Shown here: in pieces, positions 2,286 through 28,606 of the stretch
Layout of the letters: each line of letters begins with the position of its first letter
Numbering within the stretch: the first letter of the stretch is position 1
Origin: a virus
Virus record (IMG/VR): IMGVR_UViG_3300021509_000003
Strand: one strand, 5' to 3'
DNA length: 40,145 nt
Notes under the pieces: generated by a model
Told to the model about the DNA's origin: nothing
Database searches by the model: none
The model's input: the letters and a program-made list of their open reading frames with translations, nothing else
Made by a program: the position numbers and the translations under genes

Positions 2286-2665
2286 AACATCCCTATAAAT
2301 TTAACCATATAAGGAGTGACTTGCTCTATTAACTCCTTTGTTACTAATCCAGCAAATCGTTGCCACAAACCCAGTACTTCTGCCTTTTCACATTCACTCA
2401 GTTCATCAACTGTTTTCCCCCGCACAATTTGGTCAATTCGGTCAAGACACTCTAATGCCTCAACAGGAAGTTTTTTTATATCTTCTCCCAATGCTGACCT
2501 CCAATAACATACAGAAAACTCACTGTGTTCACAGAGCACTTCTGCTAATTCATCTGCTTGAATCATTAACTTATTGTAATTTTTATTAAATTTTTTAAAG
2601 TTGCTTCCAGGACCGGCACAACCTAATCCTAATAATATGCAGAGAAAAAGTATTATTCTTTTCAT
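2282..2665 (-). CDS. Small lipoprotein (lipobox LLGLGC)
   Basis: N-terminus MKRIILFLCILLGLGCAG is a signal peptide with a lipobox cysteine. Start and stop overlap neighbours by 4 nt (ATGA). Confidence 0.55.
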   Translation of the reverse strand: MKRIILFLCILLGLGCAGPGSNFKKFNKNYNKLMIQADELAEVLCEHSEFSVCYWRSALGEDIKKLPVEALECLDRIDQIVRGKTVDELSECEKAEVLGLWQRFAGLVTKELIEQVTPYMVKFIGML

Positions 2666-3675
2666 ATTACCACCTCTATTTCTAACAATTGAATAACATT
2701 AAATATTTTATTAGCGATGGTTACTTTATCGCTACCTGCAAAGAGCAATCCAATTAAAGACAAACCATTTTTAGTCTCTTTAACAACAGCACTACCGCTA
2801 TCTCCTGGAGCACTAAATTTTTGTGGTTTGTGGTCAATCAATATCTGGTCAACAAAATACGCTATATGGCCTTCTTTATCTATTTGAACTTGACATTCGT
2901 AATCAACTGCCCTCACCAATCCTTCTGTTACTCCAGTAGTGCGGCCAGATTTCATAACGGATTCGCCAAGTTTAACCGTGTCCACAGAGATAATATGCCC
3001 CAACTCAAGCAGTTCAGGATCAGCTGTATTATTACGCAATTTTGCTATTGCACAGTCAACTTTATTCTCTGGCATTTCCCCAAATACTTCTATTCCATAT
3101 TTAAAACGAAATTTACTGCCCAAGCAGTGGGCAAGAAAATTCAAAATATGTGTAACAGCTCGTGAATATGGACAATCAGCCGTTTTTATAGGAACAAATT
3201 TAAGAAGCTCTGCTACTTTATCTTCCAGCTTCCCTCCATCATAAGGACCTGGCTGTAAAATGGCATCCCCAATTTTACCTTTATTTACATTGGCAAGAAC
3301 ATGGTTATTGGAAACTAAAACTAATTCGCCTTTATGATATGCCAGAAATCCCGCTGTGCCAGCCGTTATATCCTTATGCCCAACTGAAACGCCCATTTTA
3401 AAAGGACGATATCTTTTTGTGCGGTCAATGGCTACTAATTTTTCTGCTACTTCTAAAAAAGTAATATCTCCTACCTCCATCACATCAGTAGGGATATTTT
3501 CAACTTCTCGTGGGACAACATCTTGGGGTTTGAGTTGGTCCAGAGGCAATTTTTTTCGCACAGTTATTACCAATCCTTCACCTGTAATTTGTCCTTTTCG
3601 GACGAGCAATCCTCTGCCCATTCCCAATACATTTTTCTTTTTATAAAGCGCTTTTTTTGCTTCTTTGCTTATCAT
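2662..3675 (-). CDS. Trypsin/chymotrypsin-fold (S1) serine protease with ~110-aa N-terminal extension
   Basis: Catalytic residues in canonical order: His in VSNNHVLANV, Asp in KVDCAIAKL, Ser in APGDSGSAVV. Confidence 0.6.
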   Translation of the reverse strand: MISKEAKKALYKKKNVLGMGRGLLVRKGQITGEGLVITVRKKLPLDQLKPQDVVPREVENIPTDVMEVGDITFLEVAEKLVAIDRTKRYRPFKMGVSVGHKDITAGTAGFLAYHKGELVLVSNNHVLANVNKGKIGDAILQPGPYDGGKLEDKVAELLKFVPIKTADCPYSRAVTHILNFLAHCLGSKFRFKYGIEVFGEMPENKVDCAIAKLRNNTADPELLELGHIISVDTVKLGESVMKSGRTTGVTEGLVRAVDYECQVQIDKEGHIAYFVDQILIDHKPQKFSAPGDSGSAVVKETKNGLSLIGLLFAGSDKVTIANKIFNVIQLLEIEVVI

Positions 3676-3960
3676 TTATTCTCCTACATAATACATAGTA
3701 AAATCAAACCATTTTTCATTTCTAACATACATTGTTCCTTTTAAAGCATGCTCGTTTATTTTTTCTAAGACATCTCGCACAGGCCAATATTTATAGTGCA
3801 GTTCCATATCTTTAATTTTAAAATCTGCCAAAAATAATTCGCTCCCCCAAGGAAGAAAGTTTTTCCCACTATCTCCTTCTATTTTTTTGGTCAGGATGTG
3901 TGTTTCCCCGATGTAAACTTTCCAATATCCATCAAGTATTTTATTCATTTTATTTGACAA
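3676..3960 (-). CDS. Hypothetical protein
   Basis: 94-aa ORF tightly packed in the same operon. Confidence 0.4.
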   Translation of the reverse strand: MSNKMNKILDGYWKVYIGETHILTKKIEGDSGKNFLPWGSELFLADFKIKDMELHYKYWPVRDVLEKINEHALKGTMYVRNEKWFDFTMYYVGE

Positions 3961-4465
3961 TTTCCTTTTTAATTAACTTACCACCAGCAGCTTGAATTAT
4001 GCAGATAAATATTTCGGGCGTTACCAGCCACGGTTTGATGTGACTCCATCCAAATATCTTTACCAATGGAGCAACACAGCCTTCACTGCAAAAATATTGT
4101 CCTTCTTTTTCCTTTCTCCATTTAGTAAAAAGTCCAAAAGCCGCTATATAATCAAAATATGCTCCTTTATTGGCAAGCCCCTGCATAAAATTATGTATAA
4201 AAACTTGCTGTGCTTCAGAAACTTCCAATTTCCATATTTCATATTTACTTCCTTTAGGGTAGCCTTTTAAAAATGGCCTAATAGCCCATTTTACTTTAAA
4301 AATTTTCCAAATATTTTCTGGCCAACATTCTATGGCATAATCAGGTCCTGCCTGTTCGGCAGGAATTAAATAGGCAATGTGGCTGTATTCACTTTGTGTT
4401 TGATACTCAATTACTTTTGCCAACCAATCATTACCTTTTAAAGCAATATATTTAATTTCAGCCAT
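3950..4465 (-). CDS. Permuted papain-fold cysteine peptidase/amidase (YiiX/C92-like, NlpC/P60 superfamily)
   Basis: His-containing EYSHIAYLIP precedes Cys-containing YFCSEGCV, the permuted order of this family. Contains an in-frame copy of the 16-mer cctgcctgttcggcag. Confidence 0.45.
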   Translation of the reverse strand: MAEIKYIALKGNDWLAKVIEYQTQSEYSHIAYLIPAEQAGPDYAIECWPENIWKIFKVKWAIRPFLKGYPKGSKYEIWKLEVSEAQQVFIHNFMQGLANKGAYFDYIAAFGLFTKWRKEKEGQYFCSEGCVAPLVKIFGWSHIKPWLVTPEIFICIIQAAGGKLIKKEIVK

Positions 4466-5321: not shown

Positions 5322-6335
5322 CTATGGAACATAAATCCCTCCTTGTGTCTGCTTCCAAGGCACTTTCGTGTATATCATGCTATGTGGCAAGCCTCTTAAC
5401 ATGCGGTAGACTGGACTGCGATACATATTTTCACGGATTTCATCCGATGACCACGCACGGTTTTCAATAACAAGAGCAGCAATCAGGCCCTTAAAAGGGT
5501 ATTTAACAGTATGCAAAACATTTGCACCAACGAAGAGCTGTCTTTCGCTATTATCAATAGTATGTGGACCAATATTCAAACTTGCCTCTTCCAACCCATC
5601 TAAATAAACTTTCATATATGCCCCGTCATAAATCGCTGTAACATATATCAATCTCCCTTTAGGCAAAGTATATTCAACTCTTTTATATCCATCAGGATAA
5701 CCTAACCCATCAATATATAAAGAGAAATATTTTGTTACTAAATCATAATCCCCATCACCGTAAGAAGGCCTGTATTTACATACTATGTGACCTCTATCAA
5801 CTTGAGATATTACCCACACCCCTATTGTAATTCGATTAACAACAGCTAAGCTTGTGTCATCTCCGCAATCTACATAGCCACTATCTCCATCAATCTCAAA
5901 TCCCATTACCCCAGGGGTAACCATATATGGCCTTGCACCACCATGAGGCACACCGTGATTGCCGCTTCCTGACAAGTCAACCCACCCACTAGACCTACAA
6001 TCCAGTGGGTAGCATGATAAGTCCAAAACAGATTGTTTTTTACTCACTTTTTCAACTCCTATTACACCATTATTCACAATTACCTGCCAAATATCGCCAG
6101 CGAGGTCCCGAAGATAAAATTGCGTATCTGGCTGTGCTGTGGTATCCGCTAGAACCAGACGGCCATTGTCGATAGAAAGCACCCATGTAGTTGTTCCATC
6201 TTTATCGTTTATGACTGGATTAGATTCACTTTCAGCCTCCGTGTTTTCCTCTAGTTGCAGCTTGCCATTGATAACTTTCAGTTTCCAGTATTGTTCAACT
6301 GCTGCATCTTCTAGAGGATAATATTCCTTTATCAA
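5322..6335 (-). CDS. LamG/concanavalin-A-like lectin-fold domain protein
   Basis: C-terminal FKGLIAALVIENRAWSSDEIRENMY matches the LamG signature; upstream GD/ITIGVWV beta-sandwich pattern. Confidence 0.5.
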   Translation of the reverse strand: MIKEYYPLEDAAVEQYWKLKVINGKLQLEENTEAESESNPVINDKDGTTTWVLSIDNGRLVLADTTAQPDTQFYLRDLAGDIWQVIVNNGVIGVEKVSKKQSVLDLSCYPLDCRSSGWVDLSGSGNHGVPHGGARPYMVTPGVMGFEIDGDSGYVDCGDDTSLAVVNRITIGVWVISQVDRGHIVCKYRPSYGDGDYDLVTKYFSLYIDGLGYPDGYKRVEYTLPKGRLIYVTAIYDGAYMKVYLDGLEEASLNIGPHTIDNSERQLFVGANVLHTVKYPFKGLIAALVIENRAWSSDEIRENMYRSPVYRMLRGLPHSMIYTKVPWKQTQGGIYVP

Positions 6336-7825
6336 TTATTGCTCCTTCCTATTTCCACCCATCTATCTTCGACATAAACTAAGCTTAAAGTATCGTTTTG
6401 ACCCATGACAAAATCACCTGCCAATTCACTCACCCCTGCTGTATCGCTGAAATTGCATACATTAGCAGAAACATTCACAATCGTAACAACCGTTCCGTCT
6501 ATCACATCTGCCTCCCCCATAATAATGTCACAGCCATCTGCATCATTGCAGATTAACTTCACAGAGCTGGTTGAAGGAGTAAGAGTATAAGAAGCAGGAT
6601 TAGCATCGCCTGAGTCTGTAACAGTAACTTCGTCTGGGGACGAGCCGATGACTCCATTTACCTCTATACTCCTCAATTTTCTTCTGGTTGCAAAGTGGAC
6701 TAACGCCTCCCTCAATGTCACAACTTTAATACCTCTTTCCCTTGCCCAGTCGATAGTGTTTGCAATTCTCTCTTCAGTTAAAGTAGAGAGATTAGCATGA
6801 CCATACAACAAGCCAAGCTCGTTATTTGTGGCTATGGTATCCAGAAAATTTTGAAGCTCCGAATCACTCAGTTTGTCAGTTTCAAAACTTTTTCGAGGCA
6901 GGGCATAAAGCTCGTCAGTCCCAATAGGAAAAGAAACCCTTCCATCACCACCCTTACAAGCAGCCCTGTAAAAATGCGAGACCCAAACTCTCGCCTCTGG
7001 ATTCTCGCTATTGTAAGGATAAACAAAAGCTCCTATCCTCAAATCCATCTCAGACAAAATCCTTTTGGACTCATATAGCTCCTTGTATGCATAGTCCTCA
7101 TGAATCTTCAGAACTGCACCATCCGATACTTGATACGAATTCGCAAGCCCATTTTCAATCGTAACATAATTACCGTTGTCATCTGACCCTGTCCCAGTTA
7201 CCGTTACATTTTCAGGCCCTGCGTTGTCGTCCCAGACTCTGTAGACGTATCCAACTTTGATGGGGCTAAGATACTCTATATAGAGTTTGGTATCTCCTGT
7301 GTTCGCATCTTGGGTCAAATCAGTAGAATAGAAGGCAAGATGATTTAAGCCATGGCTCGCAATTTCCCAGCCCGCATCTTGCATCTCCCGCAGCTGATGA
7401 GGTAATATTCCTGACGGGCCTTCCATTCCATTGATGTTTATTGCTGCCACTGCAGGAACACCTTTCTCCTGGTGAATAGGATAAGCTTTCGTCCAGGTAG
7501 CCCTGACAGCGTCATCATAAACGATAACAAGCATAGGTCTTACCGAAAAATTCCCCAAGTTACAACACAAATCATTTATCAGCACTGAAGAATTTGAAAG
7601 AGAAAGTCGTTTCCATTCCGACGCACTGTTGCACAAGCCATCAGCAGTATCGCAGACGTATAAAACTTTATCGTCTTCTTCGTAACATAAATCACCTGCT
7701 CTACCATCTGTAATAGATGTGCAATCTGTCGTATGTGTTCTATAACGCCAAAAATACCAAGTGGCTGCACTAATAGATGTAACTAGAAACAGGATAAGAA
7801 TCAGTAAAGATAAAATTTTTTTCAT
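6332..7825 (-). CDS. Secreted polysaccharide deacetylase (CE4/NodB-homology domain) with Cys-rich N-region and C-terminal extension
   Basis: Signal/TM segment MKKILSLLILILFLVTSISA. NodB motifs IVYDDA (DD), ASHGLNH (HxxxH), VYPYNSE (xPY). Confidence 0.6.
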   Translation of the reverse strand: MKKILSLLILILFLVTSISAATWYFWRYRTHTTDCTSITDGRAGDLCYEEDDKVLYVCDTADGLCNSASEWKRLSLSNSSVLINDLCCNLGNFSVRPMLVIVYDDAVRATWTKAYPIHQEKGVPAVAAININGMEGPSGILPHQLREMQDAGWEIASHGLNHLAFYSTDLTQDANTGDTKLYIEYLSPIKVGYVYRVWDDNAGPENVTVTGTGSDDNGNYVTIENGLANSYQVSDGAVLKIHEDYAYKELYESKRILSEMDLRIGAFVYPYNSENPEARVWVSHFYRAACKGGDGRVSFPIGTDELYALPRKSFETDKLSDSELQNFLDTIATNNELGLLYGHANLSTLTEERIANTIDWARERGIKVVTLREALVHFATRRKLRSIEVNGVIGSSPDEVTVTDSGDANPASYTLTPSTSSVKLICNDADGCDIIMGEADVIDGTVVTIVNVSANVCNFSDTAGVSELAGDFVMGQNDTLSLVYVEDRWVEIGRSNN

Positions 7826-9639: not shown

Positions 9640-9999
9640 TTATGCCAGCATAACTTCTATCTCTGTAGTAGCACCAGCAGCTACTGTGCCCATTGCATAG
9701 CCAAAAAGAATGCCATTTGTAGCGTCTTTATTAATCTCGTCTCCATCTTTATATAGCTTATCCCAACGGGCAACGGCGCTATTGCCAGCGTCATCCTTTC
9801 CTGTAACATTCAATTTTACGACCACAGCATCACGGACAATTACTGTTGCCCCGCCATCATCATCTCTATCAGTCAAAGCAATTGCTGGAATTTCTGCTTT
9901 ATCTTCTCCTAATATAATAGGGTCTCCACTGTTCACACCTTCTGCAACAGAAGGTTCATAAAAAGTTGTGCCTTGTCCAAAGCTTATATTTTTTGCCAT
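9640..9999 (-). CDS. Putative capsid decoration/accessory head protein
   Basis: 119-aa Gly/Ala/Asp-rich ORF directly after the capsid gene, followed by a strong hairpin element. Confidence 0.3.
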   Translation of the reverse strand: MAKNISFGQGTTFYEPSVAEGVNSGDPIILGEDKAEIPAIALTDRDDDGGATVIVRDAVVVKLNVTGKDDAGNSAVARWDKLYKDGDEINKDATNGILFGYAMGTVAAGATTEIEVMLA

Positions 10000-10032: not shown

Positions 10033-12390
10033 TTAAGCACCTGGATTCTTATATAAAGCTTTCCAGCTTATGGCTTTTGCGCCTGCTTCAATCCTTACCT
10101 TAAATTCTACGCCATCAACATGCCAGCCTTCCTTTTGTTCAAGAGTAGGGGCCTGTTTCCCATCCAGGAAGAAAATAGTTACAGTCTTTCCTTTTGGTCC
10201 AGCCACATACCAAGCAGTGCCAGCATCATCTAAGCGTCCATCACTAATAACCTTTAAGTTGTATTTACGAAGAATATTAGGTTTGGCCGATACTTTCCCA
10301 CCAGTAGTAGAAAAATCTACATATTGCATGCCAAGCAATTCTTCTACATCCATTCCATCTTCAATACGGACAATTATAAATTGTGGTCTAATGTGAAGTC
10401 TGCGTTTACCGCCAATGTCTTTTTGTTTAAGCATAGCTTTTATGGCTGCTTTAATGGTATCTGTGCTTGGGGCTGCCCCGGCGCCGGCTAAGTTACCATG
10501 ACTAGAATGAAAAAGTGCCACACCATCGCCCATAGTTGGGTTTGTGGTCAAAACTTTATACGCTAAATCGGCTATTTTTCGCCTGGCTGCTGCACCCATT
10601 TCCTTTGGGATTCCAGTTAAGGCATTTAAATCATCATTTATGATTGTTTGTCTTGTGATAGAGAAAAGCTTGCCATAGGTGGCAATTGAATACTTCTCTT
10701 GCTGTTCGCTAACCGTGCCATATTTGTATTCTGCCCCTTCTGGAATTTTATCCAGGTCATCAAATTCACCTGGGCGAACCAGTTTATTTTCTTTAAAATC
10801 GCTAACAGAACCTACACCGCACCATTCACGCCAAGTTTCTGGTTCTTCTTCAAAGCCCTGCATTAAGGCCTTGTTGGCTACATTTTGAAGGATAAGAGGA
10901 AAATCAGAGGAAGTGTGTGTAAAAGCACGTGCTACCATGTCCATTTTGCTTAAGCCTCTACATGGAATATTTGACCTGATAAGACACTCTCTAGCTATTT
11001 CTACCAGAGGACGGTTAGCAAAATCCTCAGCCCCGCTATCTTTAACCTCTTCAGCAGAGACAAAACCAACTCTTAAAAGCAATCCATTCTGAACGGCCCT
11101 ATTAAATTTATCTTTTTCATCCTTACCTGTTACAGGTTCACCAGTTTCCATCCTTCCAACTGGAGTATTTCTTTCAGCCAGTTTTTGAAGAATTAAATCT
11201 TTTGCCCTTTCCACGGTGTATTTTTGCTCAATCATCTCATCCATCAACTTCTCATCAATATTATGCATTTTGCAAAGAGACCTAATCTCCATTACTCGCT
11301 TGCGTTCTGCTTCTTCTCCTTTTTTCCTTGCTTCCTCTATCTCTTTTTGTATTTCTTCAGGATTTTTAATTTCTTCTTTTCTTTTTTCTTCTGCCATTGT
11401 TTTATCCTCCTTTTTATTTTCTTGTCCGACTGTTCGACCCACACCTACCGAGGCATCGGCAGGCACAGGAGTTAAAGAAAACTCAAAAACACTCCATCTT
11501 TGCGCTATGTATGCAGGCCCCTTAAATCCATTCCATTGCTCTTTTTCTTGCAGTTTGAGCCATTTATGAACTTGATATCCAACTGAAACGCCCCGTAATG
11601 TCTGATCTTTAATTTCTTGATATGCTTCCAGGGCCTTTTGTGTAGTGCCAAACTGAATTATGGCACGGCCTTTTTTGTCCTCTTCATCAAGCCAAATTTT
11701 TAAAGGTTTGGCCACTCTTTGATTTGGGTCATGATTTATCAAAATGCTGCCAACTTCTTTTATCGGTTTAAAATTAATAGCGTCTTTTGTATGAAGTAAG
11801 ATTTCTTTTCCATACCAGCGTTCTACTGGCTCTTCTGAGCTAAAGCTCACTTCTACAATGCGGTTTTCATCATCCAGGATGCCACGCATTTCACAAGGAA
11901 AAGTGCGCCGCATTCTGGCGTCAGTAGGAGGGAGGTCTCTTTCATCTTCACTAGTAGGAAGATATGAGTCAGCCTCAAAAGTATCTAGTTGTTTTTCAAC
12001 ATTTTTTTTAAGAGCTGGAGGTTCTTTCCCAAATTTTTCATAATATTTCACGATATGCTTATATACATCTTCTCTATCTTTATCTGGTATGTTTACTCCT
12101 TTCCTAGCCCCATTTAATACCTGCATAGCTAATCTAACGCCATGCCAAACAGCTTGTAATTCATCATTAATTACATCAGCAAATTTTAATTTATAACCTT
12201 GAAATTCTTGCTCATGTTCTGAATCATACCAAAAAAATGCCTTTCTAAATTTTTTCCAATCGATTTTATCTTTATCACCAGACCCATCGCTACTTGCCCA
12301 CTTCCGCACATTTTTTTCAGCTTCATCATGATGATATGGACGCTCTAAATCCTCACATATAGATAAATTAACAAATGGTGTTACCGGCAT
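10033..12390 (-). CDS. Fused prohead protease (HK97/S78-like) + coiled-coil scaffold + major capsid protein (HK97 fold, Mu gpT-like)
   Basis: Protease motifs INHD, LRGVSVGYQ, FEFSLTPVPADASVG; Glu/Lys-rich coiled coil in the middle; capsid-like motifs ALFHSSHGNL and RLHIRPQFIIV. One uninterrupted 785-aa frame with GGAGG RBS. Confidence 0.7.
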   Translation of the reverse strand: MPVTPFVNLSICEDLERPYHHDEAEKNVRKWASSDGSGDKDKIDWKKFRKAFFWYDSEHEQEFQGYKLKFADVINDELQAVWHGVRLAMQVLNGARKGVNIPDKDREDVYKHIVKYYEKFGKEPPALKKNVEKQLDTFEADSYLPTSEDERDLPPTDARMRRTFPCEMRGILDDENRIVEVSFSSEEPVERWYGKEILLHTKDAINFKPIKEVGSILINHDPNQRVAKPLKIWLDEEDKKGRAIIQFGTTQKALEAYQEIKDQTLRGVSVGYQVHKWLKLQEKEQWNGFKGPAYIAQRWSVFEFSLTPVPADASVGVGRTVGQENKKEDKTMAEEKRKEEIKNPEEIQKEIEEARKKGEEAERKRVMEIRSLCKMHNIDEKLMDEMIEQKYTVERAKDLILQKLAERNTPVGRMETGEPVTGKDEKDKFNRAVQNGLLLRVGFVSAEEVKDSGAEDFANRPLVEIARECLIRSNIPCRGLSKMDMVARAFTHTSSDFPLILQNVANKALMQGFEEEPETWREWCGVGSVSDFKENKLVRPGEFDDLDKIPEGAEYKYGTVSEQQEKYSIATYGKLFSITRQTIINDDLNALTGIPKEMGAAARRKIADLAYKVLTTNPTMGDGVALFHSSHGNLAGAGAAPSTDTIKAAIKAMLKQKDIGGKRRLHIRPQFIIVRIEDGMDVEELLGMQYVDFSTTGGKVSAKPNILRKYNLKVISDGRLDDAGTAWYVAGPKGKTVTIFFLDGKQAPTLEQKEGWHVDGVEFKVRIEAGAKAISWKALYKNPGA

Positions 12391-14174
12391 ATTATTCCCT
12401 CCCGCCTGCCTGTTTGCTCAACAGATAAGCCTACCTGCCTGTTCGGCAGATAGGTCTGTCCAATAGGCAAGCTATTTTTAGCCTTTTTTTCTTCTTGAGC
12501 CTTTGCCCAATTTTTGACCCATTGTTTGGCCTGGCTCACTGTCCATTTATCTTTATCAAAAATAAAAGAAATAATTTTTTTACAATCTATACAGTAACGG
12601 GCTTGTATTCCCTTTTTTTCACTGATTGTGATAGTGCGAATTTCATGACCTTTATGTTTTCCCTCTTCTCCAGGAACCGGCACATGAATTTTATTTTCTG
12701 TTACTTCAACTCGAGTTTGAATATCCTGAAATTTTACTTGCATTTGTGATATATCAGTGAGACCTAAATCATTTAAATATTGTTTTTCTTTTGCTCTTTG
12801 ATTGGCTATTTCTTGCCAATCTTTACCTTTAACAGCACATTCATCCGCCAAGCTAGTTAAACCAAGTTGCAGTTCTAACTTCTTTGCCTGAGCTTCTTTC
12901 AATGGGTCAACCCAATCAAAACCTTTGAAAATCCAGCGGTGTTTCAGCCAATTTTCAGGAGCCTTAATAAATCCCTGAACCTGCAAATAGCCGCTCACGA
13001 TGCCATATTTCACAAAGTCTTCCCAGATAGGTTGGAGAAAATATCTTTCAAGTGCTTTCCGGAATGGAAGCATATAATCCCGCAGTTCTAATTCACTATG
13101 CCGAGTAGAAGAATAATTTACATCTGATTTATCACCACTTATTTGTTCATATGAAAGATTTACGCCTCGGCCCATGCCCCGCAAAATAATTTTTACAAAA
13201 TCTGGGAAAGTGCTGCCTGGACGTTTAGGATTGATAACTTCTATTTCTTCTCCTGGGCCAAGATGTTCTACCATTCCAGGAGCTATCTCTATTTCTCTTT
13301 CTTTTGTTTCTGTATTTTGAGTGCTAGTTTGCATGCGTCCCCATATATCAGATGTCTTTATAATTATTCCAAAACAGGCAGCTACTTTGGCAGACATTAG
13401 TTCTGCTTCTAAAAGTTCTGAAAGGTGATAAGCGAGGGGAATAACAGGAGCTAAAAGTGGAATGCCCATCAATTGTCCAGGACGGCGAAAAGGAGAAAAG
13501 TGAATAATATCTTGGGCAGGAATGCGAATGGATTGTTGTTTCAAAATGAATGGATTAGAAATATCTACTTTCCAGAAATGATAAGCAACTATTTTACCTG
13601 TTTGGTCTATCTCAAAACCATTCCAGTTCCAATTATCCTTTTTAGGCGTGCCCATACCACATAAACGGCTATATTCCAGTGCTTCAAGACAAAAAGGGAA
13701 ATCTCTGGATTTATCTATAACTTTGTGGAAAAAAATGCCTCCATCTAAAAATAATTTTAAAATTGCCAGCCGTTCCAGGTCTCCAAAATGAAATTGGTCG
13801 TAATAATCGGCTACTCGTGCCCACTGTTTAAATACATTCTCAGCCTTAGAATTAAATTGTTCGTTATCTGTGAGAGCCTGTGGTGTGCTGCCTCCACCAA
13901 TCATGCGGTTAACAATCAGGTCGATACTGCCACGAACAAAAGATTCATTCCAATATAGATAATTGGCTCTAGCTCTGACTGTTTGCAGGTCTGAGAAATT
14001 ATCATTTGGACCTTCTGCGCTGGTAGTCCAATATGAAGACATGCGGTCTTTAGAAGCAGCTTTTAAATGCCTGCGAACTACTTTTTGAAGATATTCCCGC
14101 TTTGCCTTCCATTTTGGGAAAGCTGCCCAAAAAAAGGCGTCCAGGGCTTTTGAAATGGATTTTAAAATGTTCAT
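12381..14174 (-). CDS. Portal protein, lambda gpB family
   Basis: LSYEQISGDKS... and VKGKDWQEIANQRAKE align with lambda gpB VSYEQLSRNY... and KRGDDYQEIFAQQVRE. Follows a gpW-like gene with ATGA overlap. Confidence 0.85.
   Translation of the reverse strand: MNILKSISKALDAFFWAAFPKWKAKREYLQKVVRRHLKAASKDRMSSYWTTSAEGPNDNFSDLQTVRARANYLYWNESFVRGSIDLIVNRMIGGGSTPQALTDNEQFNSKAENVFKQWARVADYYDQFHFGDLERLAILKLFLDGGIFFHKVIDKSRDFPFCLEALEYSRLCGMGTPKKDNWNWNGFEIDQTGKIVAYHFWKVDISNPFILKQQSIRIPAQDIIHFSPFRRPGQLMGIPLLAPVIPLAYHLSELLEAELMSAKVAACFGIIIKTSDIWGRMQTSTQNTETKEREIEIAPGMVEHLGPGEEIEVINPKRPGSTFPDFVKIILRGMGRGVNLSYEQISGDKSDVNYSSTRHSELELRDYMLPFRKALERYFLQPIWEDFVKYGIVSGYLQVQGFIKAPENWLKHRWIFKGFDWVDPLKEAQAKKLELQLGLTSLADECAVKGKDWQEIANQRAKEKQYLNDLGLTDISQMQVKFQDIQTRVEVTENKIHVPVPGEEGKHKGHEIRTITISEKKGIQARYCIDCKKIISFIFDKDKWTVSQAKQWVKNWAKAQEEKKAKNSLPIGQTYLPNRQVGLSVEQTGRREGIICR
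12401..12460 (-). repeat. GC-rich palindromic element at the portal/capsid junction
   Basis: gcctgcctgtt (12404-12414) and cctgcctgttcggcag (12434-12449); lies in the 3' tail of the portal ORF and upstream of the capsid RBS. Confidence 0.55.
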
Positions 14175-14392
14175 AATGATGGAGAATATTTGGAAAATGT
14201 TCTTGTCTTATAATTCAAGAGCATGCGGTCATATTGTGCTTGCAACTGACGCCGTTCAGCATACAGAACCGCAAGGTCCGCTTTTCTGACTCGCCTGTCG
14301 CCTAAATCGTATGATTGAGCGCCATTTTCAATAGCTTCTATAGCTGCCTCAACAGCCTCTAGGCGCTCCTGAACGGTTTTGATATTTGCCAT
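14171..14392 (-). CDS. gpW-like head-tail joining protein
   Basis: 73-aa protein with the helical ERLEAVEAAIEAIENG...GDRRVRKADLAVL pattern of lambda gpW, directly upstream of the portal as in lambda. Confidence 0.5.
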   Translation of the reverse strand: MANIKTVQERLEAVEAAIEAIENGAQSYDLGDRRVRKADLAVLYAERRQLQAQYDRMLLNYKTRTFSKYSPSL

Positions 14393-14481: not shown

Positions 14482-14802
14482 TTATTGGTTGCCGGTTGGT
14501 AGGTGAGAACAAGTATAAAAGGCAAAAATAGTATATTGCTTCCAGCGTTTTAAATCAGGATTGGCAGCAAGAGCATCAATAAGAGCTTGCATTTCACTTT
14601 CATTTTCCATTTCATCGTAAATATGCTCCCAAATAATTCCCTGTTCTGTTTTTCTTTTTTGGAGAGATAAAACAAGGGTCTGCCCCTGATAAATGTCATA
14701 TTTCATAACATCTTTATTAATATACATAGGTTTTAAATTTTGCAAGATTAATTTATTTATAAACTCATCATCAGGACATAATTCCTTTTTTTTATAGATC
14801 AT
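14482..14802 (-). CDS. Hypothetical protein
   Basis: 106-aa ORF in the small-gene island between large terminase and gpW. Confidence 0.4.
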   Translation of the reverse strand: MIYKKKELCPDDEFINKLILQNLKPMYINKDVMKYDIYQGQTLVLSLQKRKTEQGIIWEHIYDEMENESEMQALIDALAANPDLKRWKQYTIFAFYTCSHLPTGNQ

Positions 14803-14816
14803 ATTTCTTCACCAAT

Positions 14817-15035
14817 TTACTTATCTTCTATCTTCTCTATCTCACTTAACAATAAATAATATTTATCCCCATTTTGTAGTTGCACTTTTACTTGCTTAGG
14901 TCTTTCATTGGTATATGTTGATATTATTATGGCTTGTTGTCCACATATCTCAAGTCCTTTGGTATAAAAATTTGCCAAAATTCTTACCTTATCACCTACT
15001 CGTGGAAATTCTTGCAACTTTAGCTTTTCACTCAT
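14817..15035 (-). CDS. Hypothetical small protein
   Basis: 72-aa ORF. Confidence 0.4.
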   Translation of the reverse strand: MSEKLKLQEFPRVGDKVRILANFYTKGLEICGQQAIIISTYTNERPKQVKVQLQNGDKYYLLLSEIEKIEDK

Positions 15036-15044
15036 TATATTTCC

Positions 15045-15278
15045 TTACCACTTAAATGCATTTTCTATTATTCTCACTCTTGTCAGCAGTTTAGAATAAT
15101 CCTCTTTAAACAAATCTACTGCCTCTTGACTCATTAGGAAGCGATTTAATCTTTCTACATCTTCTAATCTAATAGAGCTACGCACAAGACTAATGGTTGA
15201 ATGAACCTGTCCTGCAATATGCAACCAATATTCTTTATCTGGATTTATTTTGTCTGCCGTTCTAGATTTAATGGACAT
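15045..15278 (-). CDS. Hypothetical small protein
   Basis: 77-aa ORF. Confidence 0.4.
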   Translation of the reverse strand: MSIKSRTADKINPDKEYWLHIAGQVHSTISLVRSSIRLEDVERLNRFLMSQEAVDLFKEDYSKLLTRVRIIENAFKW

Positions 15279-15458
15279 TTATCCCTCTATATTTTGTTTT
15301 AAAAAATTTTCTAAGCTTTTTTTAACGACATATCTTCTTTTGCCGATGCGGATTTCTTGTATTTTCCCTGTATCAAGCCAATCGTAAATTGTCCTAACGC
15401 TTCGCTGTAATTGTCTAGCTGCAATGCTCACTTCTAATAGTTCACCATTTTTAAGCAT
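15279..15458 (-). CDS. Excisionase/MerR-like HTH DNA-binding protein
   Basis: LEVSIAARQLQRSVRTIYDWLDTGKIQEIRIGKRRYVVKKSLENFL is typical of Xis-type HTH domains. Trimmed to ATG at 15456-15458; the longer track ORF overlaps the terminase 3' end. Confidence 0.5.
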   Translation of the reverse strand: MLKNGELLEVSIAARQLQRSVRTIYDWLDTGKIQEIRIGKRRYVVKKSLENFLKQNIEG

Positions 15459-15475
15459 TTTAATAATCTCATCTA

Positions 15476-17317
15476 TTATCGAAGCCACCCTGGCCTCCTG
15501 GACAACCAAGAATTTTTTAAATGGCGTCTTTGTTGTTGAATTATCTGTTGTGTCTGTTGTGGTGGAGATTCTGTTATAATAGGTTGTAAATATCGCACTT
15601 GAAGATGGTCCGCAGCACAAAAAGCATATACAGAAGCGTCTAAATAGTGATTTTGAGTTGCTACTTGCACCCACTCCTCATAATACCGCAACCCTTTTCT
15701 AATTCTTCTCTTTTCCTCAGCTATTATTTGAGTTGCGTAATCCATACCAGTAGCTTTGTGTAAATTCCAACTGCCTGATTGTCCACTTTCTATTTGAAGT
15801 TTTCTATTGATAGCATCTTTATAATAATCGGTGTTAATCAGAATAAGGCGTAATCCGCCGGGAATAGGTTTATTTTTACCTGGATATTTATCAATAATGC
15901 TTTCACGAAAAGGCACGCCACTCGTTTTAGTGCTCATGCCTTTGATTGCATATACAATACCTCTCCCATTGCGGCGCACCCATTCATAAACTTCATCTGT
16001 GCGATGACCACCGCTGTCAATAAAAGCACGCATAATAGGAATAGTTTTATCGTCCAAACGGTAGGCAGAATAAAACAAAATAAGTTCAAGTTCTTCCCAA
16101 TTATGGGCGAATCCATATCTAATCATCCATGTGGTTAAATCTAAATCATTAGCCCAGGCATGGATGACATAATAAAAACCATCTTCTTGAGTATCTACCC
16201 CAGCAGTGAGAGCCACAGCTTGTGGTGGAACTACTCCAGGGTCAAGATTTCCTCGCAAGCATAAAATTTCTTCTTCTTTACGTTTTTCTATAACTTCTTT
16301 CCAAGGCTCTGCTAAACGACTATTTACAAAATCCATCAGAAGAGCTGGATCATCTTTTGCTTCCAAAAATTCAGCCGCAATTTCTCCCCAAGTAACAAAA
16401 GGAGAATATAAACCAGATAAATGAAATCCTACCTTCCTTCTTTTTGTTGATTTTTCTTCTACAATTTCCCATTTTCCTTGGGTCAACATTTCTTGTTTTT
16501 CACTTTCTTTTATATGCGCATGACATTTTTCACATTCATACCAGGCAATATCTCGAATAATTTCAGGGTCCTTCTCTTCTTTAGGCCACTTAATGTTTTG
16601 AAATTGCAAAAATTGGTATTCTCCACAATATGGACAGGGAACAGCATAACGATATATCACATTACAAGATTGTAATTGCCTCCAAATATTCCCTGTCTCA
16701 AGAGTAGGTGTACTCGTATAAATAATTTTTTTAAAACTTTTAGTATATGTGCTGGTTCTTTTTTTTGCTAAAGCAATTGGGTCGGCTTCTTTGCCAGAAA
16801 ATGGTGGATATTTATCTATTTCATCTAAGATTAGATAGCGTATAGGACGTGAAGATAAAACAGCCGGGGAATTTGACCAGCCTAAAAAAACTGTCATAGA
16901 TTGAAATTTCATTTCTAAAAGCTGGAAGTCAAAAGCGTTTGGAGTTTTCCTATCTCGCAGAACACTACAAGCATCTATACTTGGCTGTAATCTATTTCTA
17001 GAAAAACCCTCTGCTACATCTTGAGTAGGAAAGACAAAAAGAAGTGGACCAGGGTCTTGATGTATAACATATCCAATAAAATTAATTTCTGCTTCTGTTT
17101 TCCCTAATTGAGCAGCGGCGCAAAATACAATTTCTTCTACTTCTATATCGCAAAAAGTATCCATAATAGTACGTAAATATGGAGTTCTTTCTGTTCTCCA
17201 AGGACCTGGCTCTTTTGATGATCTAGGCACAAGCACACGATAGCGGTCAGCCCATTCACTTACTGTGATACCTTCAGGCAATTGAAGAACTCTTTTTTCT
17301 CGTTCAGTCAAATTCAT
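15476..17317 (-). CDS. Terminase large subunit, lambda gpA family
   Basis: Blocks shared with lambda gpA: VSEWAD, CPYCGEYQFLQF...YECEKCHAHI (gpA ACPHCGEEQYLKF...YLCEHNAC), LYSPFVTW (gpA YSPFTTW), LDASVYAFCAA (gpA LDCFVYALAA). Confidence 0.9.
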   Translation of the reverse strand: MNLTEREKRVLQLPEGITVSEWADRYRVLVPRSSKEPGPWRTERTPYLRTIMDTFCDIEVEEIVFCAAAQLGKTEAEINFIGYVIHQDPGPLLFVFPTQDVAEGFSRNRLQPSIDACSVLRDRKTPNAFDFQLLEMKFQSMTVFLGWSNSPAVLSSRPIRYLILDEIDKYPPFSGKEADPIALAKKRTSTYTKSFKKIIYTSTPTLETGNIWRQLQSCNVIYRYAVPCPYCGEYQFLQFQNIKWPKEEKDPEIIRDIAWYECEKCHAHIKESEKQEMLTQGKWEIVEEKSTKRRKVGFHLSGLYSPFVTWGEIAAEFLEAKDDPALLMDFVNSRLAEPWKEVIEKRKEEEILCLRGNLDPGVVPPQAVALTAGVDTQEDGFYYVIHAWANDLDLTTWMIRYGFAHNWEELELILFYSAYRLDDKTIPIMRAFIDSGGHRTDEVYEWVRRNGRGIVYAIKGMSTKTSGVPFRESIIDKYPGKNKPIPGGLRLILINTDYYKDAINRKLQIESGQSGSWNLHKATGMDYATQIIAEEKRRIRKGLRYYEEWVQVATQNHYLDASVYAFCAADHLQVRYLQPIITESPPQQTQQIIQQQRRHLKNSWLSRRPGWLR

Positions 17318-17319
17318 TT

Positions 17320-17922
17320 CTATCTAATCTTGCCTTTTACTTCCACCACAATTTTTTTATATTTTTTTGTAGGTAATGCCTGTATTTTTTGCCAAAACTG
17401 CGATAAAGCTTCTTCCTGTAGATGTATTGGTAAATTATCAGTTATAACAGGTATATATTTACCTTCTCGACAATAACTTTGTAATAACTCTAATACCTCT
17501 TTTTTAAGAATTTGACGCACTATTGGTATAGTTTTTCCACTCTTATCAGCCAAAATTGTGGCTAAGCGAAACTCAAGTGCAAGTAAACTTTGTTTAAATT
17601 CACTTGCACGGGTAGCCCATTCCATTTCTATTTTTTCACGCTCAACATATTTACCCCTTAATGCTTCAAGCTCCAGTTTTTCTTTTTCTAACTTAATCAA
17701 ATTGAGAGCATCTTTTATTTTTGAACTATCAGCTCGTTTTTTAATACCAAAGTTTTCTTCAAAACAGCGAATTATATCAGGCAAGTAATATTTACTCCCA
17801 TCCTGCCTAATCTTTTGCCTCCATTTACCAAGCCAATCCCGGATAGTGCGGTCAGAACGATTAAAAGCAAGAGCAAGTTGCGGCACAGTTAGAAAAAGAC
17901 TTTTAAATAATCTTGCCACCAT
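17320..17922 (-). CDS. Putative terminase small subunit
   Basis: N-terminal HTH LTVPQLALAFNRSDRTIRDWL, then coiled coil; ends 3 nt before the large terminase start. Confidence 0.5.
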   Translation of the reverse strand: MVARLFKSLFLTVPQLALAFNRSDRTIRDWLGKWRQKIRQDGSKYYLPDIIRCFEENFGIKKRADSSKIKDALNLIKLEKEKLELEALRGKYVEREKIEMEWATRASEFKQSLLALEFRLATILADKSGKTIPIVRQILKKEVLELLQSYCREGKYIPVITDNLPIHLQEEALSQFWQKIQALPTKKYKKIVVEVKGKIR

Positions 17923-18471
17923 TTATTTCTCCCATTTAAATCCACATTTTGGACATTGAATAAAATTCTTCTTTTTTTCTTCTTTTTCTTCTTGTCTTTT
18001 TTCATTTTCTTTATTCTTATCTAAAACTTCATCTACAAAATAAGTATTATAAAAATTTTCAAAATCAAAATCAGGAATAGATAATTGGAGAAGTAATTTA
18101 TCTATATCAACATCATGTTCATAGATAAATTTATATAATCCCTCATCAGATATCTTTCCAAAACAACTATTTAAAAGAAGCAACTTTTCAGCCGCTTCCT
18201 GTTCATTGGCCGCTTCAATTTCCACAACTGGAATTTTGTCAATTGTGTAGCCTTCTTCAAGAAGCTTGCGCACAATAAAAAGCCGTTGGTGACCATCCAA
18301 AATATTGTTTTGCCAAACAAAAACAGGAAAGCTAAATCCATAGTCCAAAATAGCCTGCTTCAATTTTTTAAACTCTTCTTCGCCAAGTTCTTTAAGATTG
18401 CCTTGAAAATCTTTAAGTTTATTTATGGGAATATATTTTTGACTTTTACATGTAATCTTAATTTTTTTCAT
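17923..18471 (-). CDS. ParB N-terminal (nuclease-like) domain protein with C-terminal zinc ribbon
   Basis: ParB/Srx-type motif ILDGHQRL; C-terminal CPKCGFKW. Confidence 0.55.
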   Translation of the reverse strand: MKKIKITCKSQKYIPINKLKDFQGNLKELGEEEFKKLKQAILDYGFSFPVFVWQNNILDGHQRLFIVRKLLEEGYTIDKIPVVEIEAANEQEAAEKLLLLNSCFGKISDEGLYKFIYEHDVDIDKLLLQLSIPDFDFENFYNTYFVDEVLDKNKENEKRQEEKEEKKKNFIQCPKCGFKWEK

Positions 18472-18579
18472 AACCGATTATCTCTGTTTGGTAATTACAT
18501 TTTTGGATTTCAAACTCGGTCAAACTGTGAACCGGGGCGATCCGTATCAGGGAGTTTTCTAGGAAGGACCCAAAATTTT

Positions 18580-19185
18580 TTATTTTTTGTTTGTATAATA
18601 ATGATAACTGTGCCACCATTGATTTATAAATGTCTTTTCTGTTTTTTCTTTTATAATTGGCCAAATCCGGCGGTTTTGAAATAGCTTAGATATAGTTATG
18701 CCAGTCGCTTTCAGTTCTACAATAGGCGTCCGTTTTTTCCCTTTTCTTCTAAATACTCTTTGGCCTAACCAAGATCCTGCTTTCACCATGCGATAAATCC
18801 ATTTACCAGTTTTCATCTTTCTGACTCTTATAGGTAAATATCCACCAATAAATGCACTTTTTATAAATGTTCTTTTACTTCCTTTTTTTATCTTGACCGT
18901 AACTCCTTTTTTTATTTGTCTTGGAGCAAAATATTTAAAAGGAATGGGACCACCTATTATTGTCAATGCAGCTTCAAAATTCCCTCGTGTTGCTTTTTTT
19001 ATAGTTGCTGCCTTTTTAACATCTCCGGCTTTAATATTATATTGTTTGCGAATTTCTTTACTTCCGGTGGTAAACATAGTTTTAGCGGCTCTATTCAAAG
19101 CCGCTACTGTTGCTTGATTAACTGCCCAAGGATTCATTAAAGCTTCTGCAGTAGATATATTTTTTATTTTTAATTCTAAAAACAT
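18580..19185 (-). CDS. Hypothetical basic protein
   Basis: 201-aa Lys/Arg-rich ORF; no recognisable motif. Confidence 0.4.
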   Translation of the reverse strand: MFLELKIKNISTAEALMNPWAVNQATVAALNRAAKTMFTTGSKEIRKQYNIKAGDVKKAATIKKATRGNFEAALTIIGGPIPFKYFAPRQIKKGVTVKIKKGSKRTFIKSAFIGGYLPIRVRKMKTGKWIYRMVKAGSWLGQRVFRRKGKKRTPIVELKATGITISKLFQNRRIWPIIKEKTEKTFINQWWHSYHYYTNKK

Positions 19186-22717: not shown

Positions 22718-22731
22718 TTCTACTTTTTTAG

Positions 22732-22817
22732 CGGAGGGGGCAGGATTTGAACCTGCAGAGTTTTTAAAAACTCGTGGTTCTCAAGACCACTGCTTTAAAC
22801 CACTCGGCCACCCCTCC
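22732..22817 (-). tRNA. tRNA-Ser (anticodon UGA), type II with long variable arm; CCA not encoded
   Basis: Manual fold: acceptor GGAGGGG/CCCCTCC, anticodon stem GTGGT/ACCAC with loop CTTGAGA, variable arm GAGTTTTTAAAAACTC, T-arm GCAGG-TTCAAAT-CCTGC, discriminator G. D-stem is weak (GCC/AGC). Confidence 0.8.
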
Positions 22818-24049: not shown

Positions 24050-24784
24050 TTGCAAATTAATATAGCTAGAGATTATATTGAAAATGTGAAAAAAAGAAAA
24101 AGATACTCATTGACATATCAATATTGGCTAGCTGCTTTCAAAAAAGAAATTAAAAAAAGACCACGAGGATTTCAAAAAGAATTAGCAAAACGATTACATA
24201 AAACAGCAGTACATATCAATGATATTCTGGGGCAAAGAAAAGGAGCCTCTTTAGAATTACAAGAAAAAATTGCTCAAGATCTTGGTTATTCATATAAAGA
24301 AATGATAGAAATAGGAAAACAAATTTTAGAAGAAGCAAACTTTCAACCTATTTGTTATGAAACTATCTATTTAAAAACAGAAAAAAGACCAAAAGAAAAA
24401 ATAGGGCAACGACTAAAACAAGCTAGATTAGCATTAAACCTCACCCAAAAACAATTTGCGGAACGCTTAGGACTTAAATGGCATCAAATTAAAGATATGG
24501 AATCAGGGAAGCTATTAATTAAGCCAGAAATAGCTGAACAAATAGAAAAAATTTTCTCTATAAATTTTCGTTGGCTTTTAATAGGTGAAAATGAAATGTT
24601 TTTGAAACCAGAAATTAGAGAACCTAAAGCACTTTATAAAACATTAAAAAATGATAGAGATATTGTTACTGAAAAAATAATAACCATGCTTCAAGACATG
24701 TCAGATGAGCAAAAACGAGAGATTCTACGGTATATTGAAGAAAAGAAACTTTTAACAGACTTGCTAAAAGAACGCAGGAAATAG
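24050..24784 (+). CDS. Repressor-like protein with two XRE-type HTH domains
   Basis: Two HTH units: ELAKRLHKTAVHINDILGQRKGASLELQEKIAQDLG and IGQRLKQARLALNLTQKQFAERLGLKWHQIKDMESG. No in-frame ATG near the 5' end, so start is TTG at 24050 or GTG at 24089. Confidence 0.55.
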   Translation: MQINIARDYIENVKKRKRYSLTYQYWLAAFKKEIKKRPRGFQKELAKRLHKTAVHINDILGQRKGASLELQEKIAQDLGYSYKEMIEIGKQILEEANFQPICYETIYLKTEKRPKEKIGQRLKQARLALNLTQKQFAERLGLKWHQIKDMESGKLLIKPEIAEQIEKIFSINFRWLLIGENEMFLKPEIREPKALYKTLKNDRDIVTEKIITMLQDMSDEQKREILRYIEEKKLLTDLLKERRK

Positions 24785-28276: not shown

Positions 28277-28606
28277 TTACGCTGGTTCATTGCAACTCAT
28301 AAGTTTTTTGAATATACTAGGCTTGCATGGATAAAATCCATCTTCACCTTTAACTATATAGTCTCCTATATTGGCTTTCCTTGCTCCTTTAGGTGTAAAT
28401 ATCTTCAATCCATTTTTTCTCACCACGTTTTCAAACTCTTCCCAAGTCCACTTTCTTGCTGAGGGGTGCAATCCTGTAAAGCCAATAACTTCTCTTAAAT
28501 TATCACCAGTCCATTGTATTGCCTCTATTACAATCGGCTTTTTTCTATACTTTTTAATTGGCATAATGTTCCTCCTGTTAAAGGTATTTTTACGCTGCTC
28601 CTTCAA
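28277..28606 (-). CDS. Hypothetical protein (last gene of tail operon)
   Basis: 109-aa ORF. Confidence 0.4.
   Translation of the reverse strand: MKEQRKNTFNRRNIMPIKKYRKKPIVIEAIQWTGDNLREVIGFTGLHPSARKWTWEEFENVVRKNGLKIFTPKGARKANIGDYIVKGEDGFYPCKPSIFKKLMSCNEPA

Follow-up and report, generated by a model that had tools for sequence, protein, structure and literature searches.

The genome fragment IMGVR_UViG_3300021509_000003, a virus record of IMG/VR whose 40,145 nucleotides we refer to as the window, carries on its minus strand a gene in which a prohead protease, a scaffold-like region and a major capsid protein share a single 785-residue reading frame. Within this frame, between the protease and the scaffold-like region, lies an in-frame ATG preceded by a consensus Shine-Dalgarno (SD) sequence, and this internal start is conserved across relatives beyond chance. 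Because the SD sequence and ATG are conserved family-wide, most capsid subunits are probably made without the protease; the gene probably makes two products, a minor full-length carrier of the protease and a major scaffold and capsid protein of 454 residues. Our preferred reading, to which we assign a probability of roughly 0.7, is that the gene is a genuine member of the NCBIfam family NF045541 from a tailed phage with lambda-type packaging and portal genes, that its messenger RNA is read from two in-frame starts, and that the protease is tethered in the prohead. The elements on which this reading depends are the following.

10033..12390, minus strand: full-length open reading frame (ORF), 785 residues, 89.3 kDa, with an ATG start and the stop codon within the coordinates.
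12397..12403, minus strand: SD sequence GGGAGGG of the full-length start, 6 nt before the ATG at 12390..12388.
11406..11412, minus strand: internal SD sequence AAGGAGG, 8 nt upstream of the Met332 ATG.
11395..11397, minus strand: internal in-frame ATG, Met332, in the disordered linker after the protease (predicted local distance difference test score, pLDDT, below 50).
10033..11397, minus strand: predicted nested product Met332-Ala785, 454 residues, 50.8 kDa, comprising a scaffold/delta-like region and the major capsid protein.

The linker DNA at the internal start reads AAAAAGGAGGATAAAACAATG, that is, a consensus SD sequence, 8 nt and the in-frame ATG of Met332. Strong pairing with the anti-SD sequence is found at only two of the 18 in-frame ATGs of the ORF, Met332 (-11.6 kcal/mol, the strongest) and Met1 (-10.8 kcal/mol), all others being at -5.8 kcal/mol or weaker. 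Of 120 homologues, 117 also have a methionine in this linker, whose length varies and whose sequence is otherwise not conserved; the methionine mostly lies 9-30 residues past the VGVGR motif that ends the protease and is often preceded by E, G or K residues whose codons spell GGAG. We assembled a DNA set of 80 IMG/VR loci, two cultured phages and the window, placed the linker by hmmalign to the profile of an alignment of 22 diverse homologues of the fusion protein (alignment A2), scored SD pairing at every in-frame ATG and clustered the ORFs at 60% identity, which gave 39 clusters. All 39 clusters have a linker ATG, with a median SD energy of -8.5 kcal/mol and 87% at or below -6 kcal/mol, while 374 other downstream in-frame ATGs from the same ORFs, used as a control, have a median of -2.15 kcal/mol and only 5.6% at or below -6 kcal/mol (Mann-Whitney p = 8e-24). 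When the first linker ATG at least 5 residues past the protease-end motif is taken, which avoids any bias from picking the best candidate, 77% are still at or below -6 kcal/mol (p = 1.4e-18). The spacing between SD sequence and ATG is 5-11 nt in 37 of the 39 clusters, with a mode of 8.

The structure of the messenger RNA provides a second signature that is largely independent of the SD scoring. In the window, the segment from -30 to +30 around Met332 is the least structured in the ORF (0.0 kcal/mol versus -9.1 +/- 3.5 kcal/mol), and low structure at the linker ATG recurs in the set, with z above 0 in 36 of 39 clusters (Wilcoxon p = 2.5e-10).

The preliminary description of this DNA presented the gene as one polyprotein. 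Its three parts do lie in one frame, but the account is probably incomplete given the conserved SD sequence and ATG at Met332. A true single polyprotein would mean that only the 785-residue chain is made, that protease and capsid stand at 1:1 and are processed after assembly, and that the internal SD sequence and ATG are a relic or a by-product of composition. Such an arrangement agrees with the frame being open throughout, so that ribosomes starting at Met1 must read into the capsid domain, with database annotations that treat the fusion as one protein, and with the intrinsically purine-rich Glu, Lys and Gly codons of the linker. It is hard to reconcile with a linker ATG in every cluster, strongly SD-led in 87% and correctly spaced in 37 of 39, in sequence that is otherwise unconserved, or with the finding that SD sequences of this strength (at or below -6 kcal/mol) occur at only 15% of non-ATG linker codons. 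A relative in which the two parts are split, and whose capsid gene starts in the same region (Faecalibacterium phage FP_Epona, below), also speaks against it. Stoichiometry is a further difficulty: HK97-type proheads hold far fewer proteases than capsid subunits, and several hundred 34-kDa moieties of N-terminal domain plus protease would be a heavy load for each prohead. We consider the single polyprotein unlikely.

Several points nevertheless weigh against the two-start reading. The purine richness of the Glu, Gly and Lys codons means that some SD-like, unstructured signal is expected in the linker from composition, and the SD sequence with its ATG could be left over from an ancestral arrangement as two genes instead of being an active site. 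SD-led initiation in the host is assumed, an assumption that the strong SD sequence at Met1 supports. The two products, in the window phage and in NF045541 members alike, are a prediction from sequence signals. Finally, internal initiation in protease-scaffold-capsid fusions did not appear in the limited literature that we searched, and an earlier report is possible.

Starting from the two-start reading, we propose the following course of head assembly. Initiation at the ATG at 12390 would give an 89-kDa chain of N-terminal domain, S78 protease, scaffold helices and HK97-fold capsid, while initiation at Met332, on the signal AAGGAGG-N8-ATG, would give a 51-kDa scaffold and capsid protein that corresponds to HK97 gp5, with its delta domain and capsid parts, and serves as the bulk building block. 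A few full-length chains would co-assemble through their capsid and scaffold parts, bringing the protease and the N-terminal domain inside the prohead without a separate targeting signal. After assembly, the protease, with His220 and Ser269, would cut exposed linkers (residues 132-151, 312-343 or 409-421, or a site near residue ~490), and the removal of the scaffold would leave a mature capsid protein of 33-40 kDa, which the cement protein encoded downstream would then decorate. The preliminary description had expected autoproteolytic release of the capsid domain, and this is plausible because the putative catalytic His/Ser pair is intact and three disordered linkers are present.

This arrangement resembles known systems in different respects. 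In the predicted Met332-785 product, as in HK97 gp5, a helical scaffold region at the N-terminus leads into the HK97 fold, and like HK97 gp4 the window protease is of the S78 type, with the same His-Ser spacing. In HK97, gp4 and gp5 are separate genes and gp4 is targeted non-covalently via its C-terminus, whereas the window protease would be covalently tethered by read-through in the same frame. In lambda C/Nu3, Mu I/Z, herpes simplex virus 1 (HSV-1) UL26/UL26.5 and HFTV1 gp17/gp17.5, a long protease product is accompanied by a shorter, more abundant in-frame product that starts past the protease. Such nested expression is established for HSV-1, was recently demonstrated for the archaeal virus HFTV1 by ribosome profiling, and for lambda C/Nu3 is established according to Shaw and Murialdo (1980), as cited in PMC8508860. 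As in lambda C/Nu3, an in-frame internal start with a ribosome-binding site lies downstream of the protease domain in the window gene. In the lambda, Mu, HSV-1 and HFTV1 pairs, however, the short product comprises only the scaffold, and a gene of its own encodes the capsid protein, while the predicted nested product of the window comprises both scaffold and capsid protein. If true, our reading brings the capsid protein itself into the strategy known from lambda C/Nu3 and herpesvirus UL26/UL26.5. The internal start would thereby tie the NF045541 phages to the nested strategy of lambda, herpesviruses and archaeal tailed viruses, and it offers a testable answer to how protease-capsid fusions avoid making one protease per capsid subunit.

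We extend this reading to the whole NF045541 family only tentatively, and put its chances a little short of even: the fusion would be a nested gene pair throughout, with the scaffold and capsid protein as main product and the full-length chain as a minor, tethered protease vehicle, which here would also deliver a 131-residue domain, possibly packaged cargo or a protease regulator. With a nested start of this kind, gene calling would systematically overlook a major isoform of a virion protein in the family.

The 785-residue open frame is genuine and is no assembly or frameshift artefact. The ORF runs uninterrupted from ATG to stop in one minus-strand frame, as first described, with an overlap of 10 nt between its start and the end of the portal gene. 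Three independent assemblies (ENA ERZ27248110, JGI 3300021488 and Logan SRR7051058) encode exactly this protein among the same neighbouring genes, and protease, linker and capsid are colinear in all 22 homologues of alignment A2; for these two reasons we take the frame to be real and not the result of an indel, and the check for a frameshift or assembly error proposed at the outset accordingly found none. The possibility that two or three adjacent genes for protease, scaffold and capsid were joined by a sequencing or assembly indel draws on relatives that do keep separate protease and capsid genes, FP_Epona among them. It fails to explain the identical product from three assemblies made with different pipelines, the at least 241 homologues, of 580-877 residues, in which the capsid domain is part of a comparably long chain, the single frame that holds protease and capsid together in the 22 aligned homologues and in 75 DNA-backed ORFs, or the end-to-end match in one stretch to a curated NCBIfam model, and we regard it as extremely improbable.

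The ORF is a divergent member of this known, curated family of protease/capsid fusions, and its kind is not new. It matches NF045541 (scaf_prot_MCP2, 'prohead protease/major capsid protein fusion protein') with 588.6 bits against a cut-off of 525, in one stretch from residue 172 to 785 that covers profile positions 1-634 of 634, and it matches PHROG 4523 ('major head and protease protein') with E = 2.4e-165. Among GenBank phages, tblastn returned 196 records, all at or below 41% identity and at 30-33% where the protease is included; these include Bordetella, Paenibacillus and Pseudomonas phages, along with phages of Rhodobacter whose annotation reads 'major capsid and protease fusion protein', a SEA-PHAGES name that is routine for several actinobacteriophage clusters. 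The family examples RcMeacham gp10 and the PBb002 'major head subunit' likewise have an S78 protease, a variable linker, a helical scaffold and a Mu gpT-like HK97 capsid. The window protein differs from the cultured members in sharing only 30-33% identity with them, and from the NF045541 model, which starts at residue 172, in its additional 131-residue N-terminal domain. In the form in which it was first noted, the finding is thus ordinary, as annotation pipelines would already name the fusion protein correctly. The fusion family is already catalogued and curated (NF045541, PHROG 4523), and what is new here is the family-wide conserved internal start, for which the limited literature searched gave no earlier description, with some further interest in the unnamed, protease-associated N-terminal domain; both this domain (residues 1-131) and the start at Met332 were absent from the preliminary description.

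Two groups of relatives show how the protease and the scaffold-capsid unit have been combined. The NCBIfam family NF045540 (scaf_prot_MCP1, a ClpP-like protease/major capsid protein fusion) matches only residues 320-784 of the window protein (E = 1.3e-127) and leaves the protease part unmatched. Its representatives, Pseudomonas phage MD8 gp5 and the vB_Pae_* phages, have a homologous scaffold and capsid part (~41% identity over residues 380-785) and, like the window phage, join a lambda-like terminase to a Mu-like capsid protein, but their protease differs in fold and family, being ClpP/S49-like where that of the window is S78. Since the protease family differs before a conserved scaffold-capsid unit, the protease module must have been exchanged there. 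The MD8 fusion was described by Evseev et al. as yielding protease, scaffold and major capsid protein from one gene, and the combination of lambda-like terminase and Mu-like capsid in MD8-type phages is discussed in the same paper (PMC8508860). In one sequence of this ClpP-type sister family, Pseudomonas phage vB_Pae_BR213a (L089 1628-3709), two in-frame ATGs near the end of the protease domain have SD sequences, Met185 (AAGGAGGAG, -11.4 kcal/mol) and Met220 (-6.9 kcal/mol), and nested initiation may occur there too.

In the cultured Faecalibacterium phage FP_Epona (L088 2438-4574), homologous protease and capsid genes follow the portal gene in the same order, and a stop codon lies between them, which represents the unfused state. 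Its protease gene has 176 residues and is separated by a 13-nt gap from a 530-residue scaffold and capsid gene, which aligns to residues 321-784 of the window protein. The contrast between FP_Epona and its fused relatives means that fusion and fission at this junction occur within the family, and the separate capsid gene of FP_Epona means that the Met332-785 unit is a natural protein.

The AlphaFold2 model of the fusion protein, built from 141 sequences (mean pLDDT 86.5), consists of four folded units separated by three disordered linkers, laid out as follows.

11998..12390, minus strand: N-terminal accessory domain, residues 1-131, conserved motif KWASSDGSGDKDKIDW, no named family.
11938..11997, minus strand: linker 1, disordered, residues 132-151, pLDDT below 50; candidate cleavage region.
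11458..11937, minus strand: HK97-type (S78) prohead serine protease domain, residues 152-311, beta-rich in the AlphaFold model.
11731..11733, minus strand: codon of His220, putative catalytic His, motif ILINHDPNQ, invariant in alignment A2.
11584..11586, minus strand: codon of Ser269, putative catalytic Ser, motif RGVSVGY, invariant in alignment A2.
11362..11457, minus strand: linker 2, disordered, Glu/Lys-rich, residues 312-343, pLDDT 29-40; holds the internal start.
11167..11361, minus strand: helical scaffold-like region, residues 344-408, with an ERxRxxEIxxLC motif conserved in alignment A2.
11128..11166, minus strand: linker 3, disordered, residues 409-421, pLDDT below 50; candidate maturation cleavage region.
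10036..11127, minus strand: capsid region, residues 422-785, with a conserved helical part at 422-~490 and a Mu gpT-like HK97 fold at ~490-785.

Profile searches place the protease and capsid domains in the same polypeptide, as originally proposed, with Pfam Peptidase_S78 (PF04586) at residues 215-313 (28.7 bits against a cut-off of 21) and Phage_capsid_4 (PF25209) at residues 465-782 (E = 2.6e-51). The HK97-type protease motifs recognised at first sight are thus confirmed by the Pfam match and by the invariant His220 and Ser269, which we take to be the catalytic pair by analogy to His65 and Ser114 of HK97 gp4, with the same 49-residue spacing. The Mu gpT-like motifs of the capsid domain are likewise real. 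The Pfam Mu-like_gpT match is weak and sub-threshold, and a single-sequence search of PDB sequences gave no meaningful match; it took the 22-homologue A2 profile to reach, in addition to the PF25209 assignment, the Mu capsid (9jod, E = 8.7e-13) and the gpT-like capsid of JBD30 (8rkc, E = 7e-11). Foldseek on the capsid part returned the HK97, D3 and LME-1 capsids (probability 1.00) as well as the JBD30 and Mu capsid proteins.

Between these domains, the coiled coil of ~100 Glu/Lys-rich residues described earlier was correct only in part. Scaffold-like helices are present over ~65 residues (344-375, 380-388 and 393-407 in the AlphaFold model), but the Glu/Lys-rich stretch is only ~45 residues long (~320-365; E plus K 54% over residues 320-362) and mostly disordered. 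It overlaps linker 2, which varies in length and sequence among homologues. The predicted helices at 344-408 and 422-491 directly precede the HK97 fold in the same chain and resemble the delta domain of HK97 gp5.

The N-terminal domain has a confidently predicted fold (pLDDT 92.7) and a nearly invariant motif, KWASSDGSGDKDKIDW. Residues 1-131 match no Pfam, PHROG or NCBIfam family and have no fold relative among PDB structures. An exhaustive HMMER search found 5,912 representatives of the domain at E <=0.001 (clusters at 50% identity), and in sampled members it mostly lies next to a prohead protease of the S78 or Mu-I type, before or after it, and is at times repeated. The domain is not confined to head modules, an idea that we rejected on finding it alone in P0002, a protein whose gene is flanked by those for DnaB and RuvC in a replication module. 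Two large polyproteins, P0146 (1135 residues) and P0237 (1749 residues), combine it with a LigT/2H-phosphoesterase domain and a Mu-like I protease. The 2H phosphoesterase fold is used by some nucleases that counter the cyclic-oligonucleotide-based antiphage signalling system (anti-CBASS), and these polyproteins may represent capsid-delivered anti-defence cargo.

The N-terminal module is swappable between close relatives, judging from two sequence comparisons. From residue ~150 on, P0023 is 92% identical to the window protein and has a different N-terminal module (LNxxGxxHAxxLIxxGKVD...YKFPYGKNGKVYR), and P0024 has the same module as the window protein yet is only 66% identical to it. The boundary of the swap relative to P0023 is linker 1 (residues 132-151), with ~11940-12390 exchanged. 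A comparison of the two module types by hhalign gave a probability of 81.5% over 43 columns, and they are possibly distantly homologous. We also considered Met160 and Met168 as starts that would leave out the domain, and rejected them, as neither has an SD sequence (+0.7 and -1.5 kcal/mol). Our guesses for its role are a cargo that is brought into the head, or a factor that regulates or anchors the protease. The domain defines a large, unnamed, protease-associated family, a candidate capsid-internal cargo or regulator that is worth characterising.

The genes around the fusion form a head module in the order TerS, TerL, four small ORFs, gpW-like protein, portal, fusion and Phage_cement_2 protein, of which the main members are the following.

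17320..17922: TerS, small terminase.
15476..17317: TerL, gpA-type large terminase, PF05876 and PF20454 (GpA_ATPase/GpA_nuclease).
14171..14392: gpW-like protein, PHROG 118.
12381..14174, minus strand: lambda-family portal, 597 residues, directly upstream of the fusion; PF05136 (Phage_portal_2) E = 2.2e-79, TIGR01539 250.5 bits against a cut-off of 172.7.
9640..9999, minus strand: cement (decoration) protein, directly downstream of the fusion; PF09956 (Phage_cement_2), 24.2 bits against a cut-off of 24.

The gpA-type TerL, the gpW-like adaptor and the gpB-type portal are common to this module and that of lambda, while the gpC-type (S49/ClpP-like) protease of lambda is replaced by the S78 protease of the window. 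The preliminary description considered the module a mosaic, and its packaging and portal genes are indeed of lambda type, but the combination is nothing special to this phage: TerS, gpA-type TerL, gpW-like, portal, fusion and Phage_cement_2 genes are arranged in this order also in two cultured phages, RcMeacham of Rhodobacter and PBb002 of Bordetella. Because they share this order, the mosaic is normal for the lineage, and lambda-type packaging with a fused S78 protease/Mu-like capsid is the standard head module of the lineage, not a local recombination product. No gpD-family match was found in Pfam for the gene downstream of the fusion, whose only Pfam match is Phage_cement_2, at cut-off. The presence of a cement gene suggests that the capsid is stabilised by decoration instead of by Lys-Asn isopeptide crosslinking ('chainmail').

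This setting also bears on whether the gene belongs to the virion of an infective phage at all. Encapsulins are among the HK97-fold matches returned by Foldseek, and the protein could in principle be the shell protein of a gene transfer agent, of a satellite or of a compartment resembling an encapsulin. We give this hardly any credence, as the gene lies between a lambda-type portal and a cement gene, TerS, TerL, the gpW-like adaptor, the major tail protein and other tail genes are encoded in the same ~40-kb window, and in sequence the gene is most closely related to the capsid genes of phages in culture.

Other features of the head module deserve mention. The portal carries a C-terminal extension of ~120 residues (~475-597; 12384-12752) past the TIGR01539 and Pfam models, with no family match; a relationship to the module that precedes the N-terminal domain in the stand-alone P0002 was rejected (BLASTP E = 0.26). 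Between TerL and the gpW-like gene (14482-15674) lie three small ORFs and an HTH_17 (excisionase-like) ORF, the longest reading of which overlaps the 3' end of the terminase gene, whereas in RcMeacham the TerL and gpW-like genes are contiguous. In the region 17923-19185, a gene with a ParB-like nuclease domain lies directly upstream of TerS, as does RcMeacham gene 1, and the gene for a Neck1/tail-completion-type protein (PHROG 27) precedes the terminase instead of lying in the head-tail connector region.

Elsewhere in the window, in the stretch 5322-7825, one gene encodes 497 residues with a hydrophobic segment at the N-terminus and domains of the polysaccharide deacetylase/DUF2334 type, and another encodes a 337-residue Laminin_G_3 (concanavalin-like) protein; enzymes of this sort are unusual where these two genes lie, flanked by the head-completion genes and the gene for the major tail protein. 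Two more protease-like genes (2662-4465) are found downstream of the latter, one of 337 residues (PHROG 20754 'protease', Nal1_C domain) and one of 171 residues with a weak match to the crotonase/ClpP-like PHROG 1128. A 787-residue protein (28590-30953) with a CAP/SCP (cysteine-rich secretory protein family) domain at residues 543-666 lies among large ORFs without a family match, which are probably tail genes. The window also contains a tRNA-Ser(TGA) gene (22731-22817). The only sizeable plus-strand gene (24050-24784) encodes a 244-residue HTH_3 repressor-like protein and lies at the sole sign change of the GC skew, and together the repressor-like gene and the skew switch suggest a temperate phage with a divergent regulatory region.

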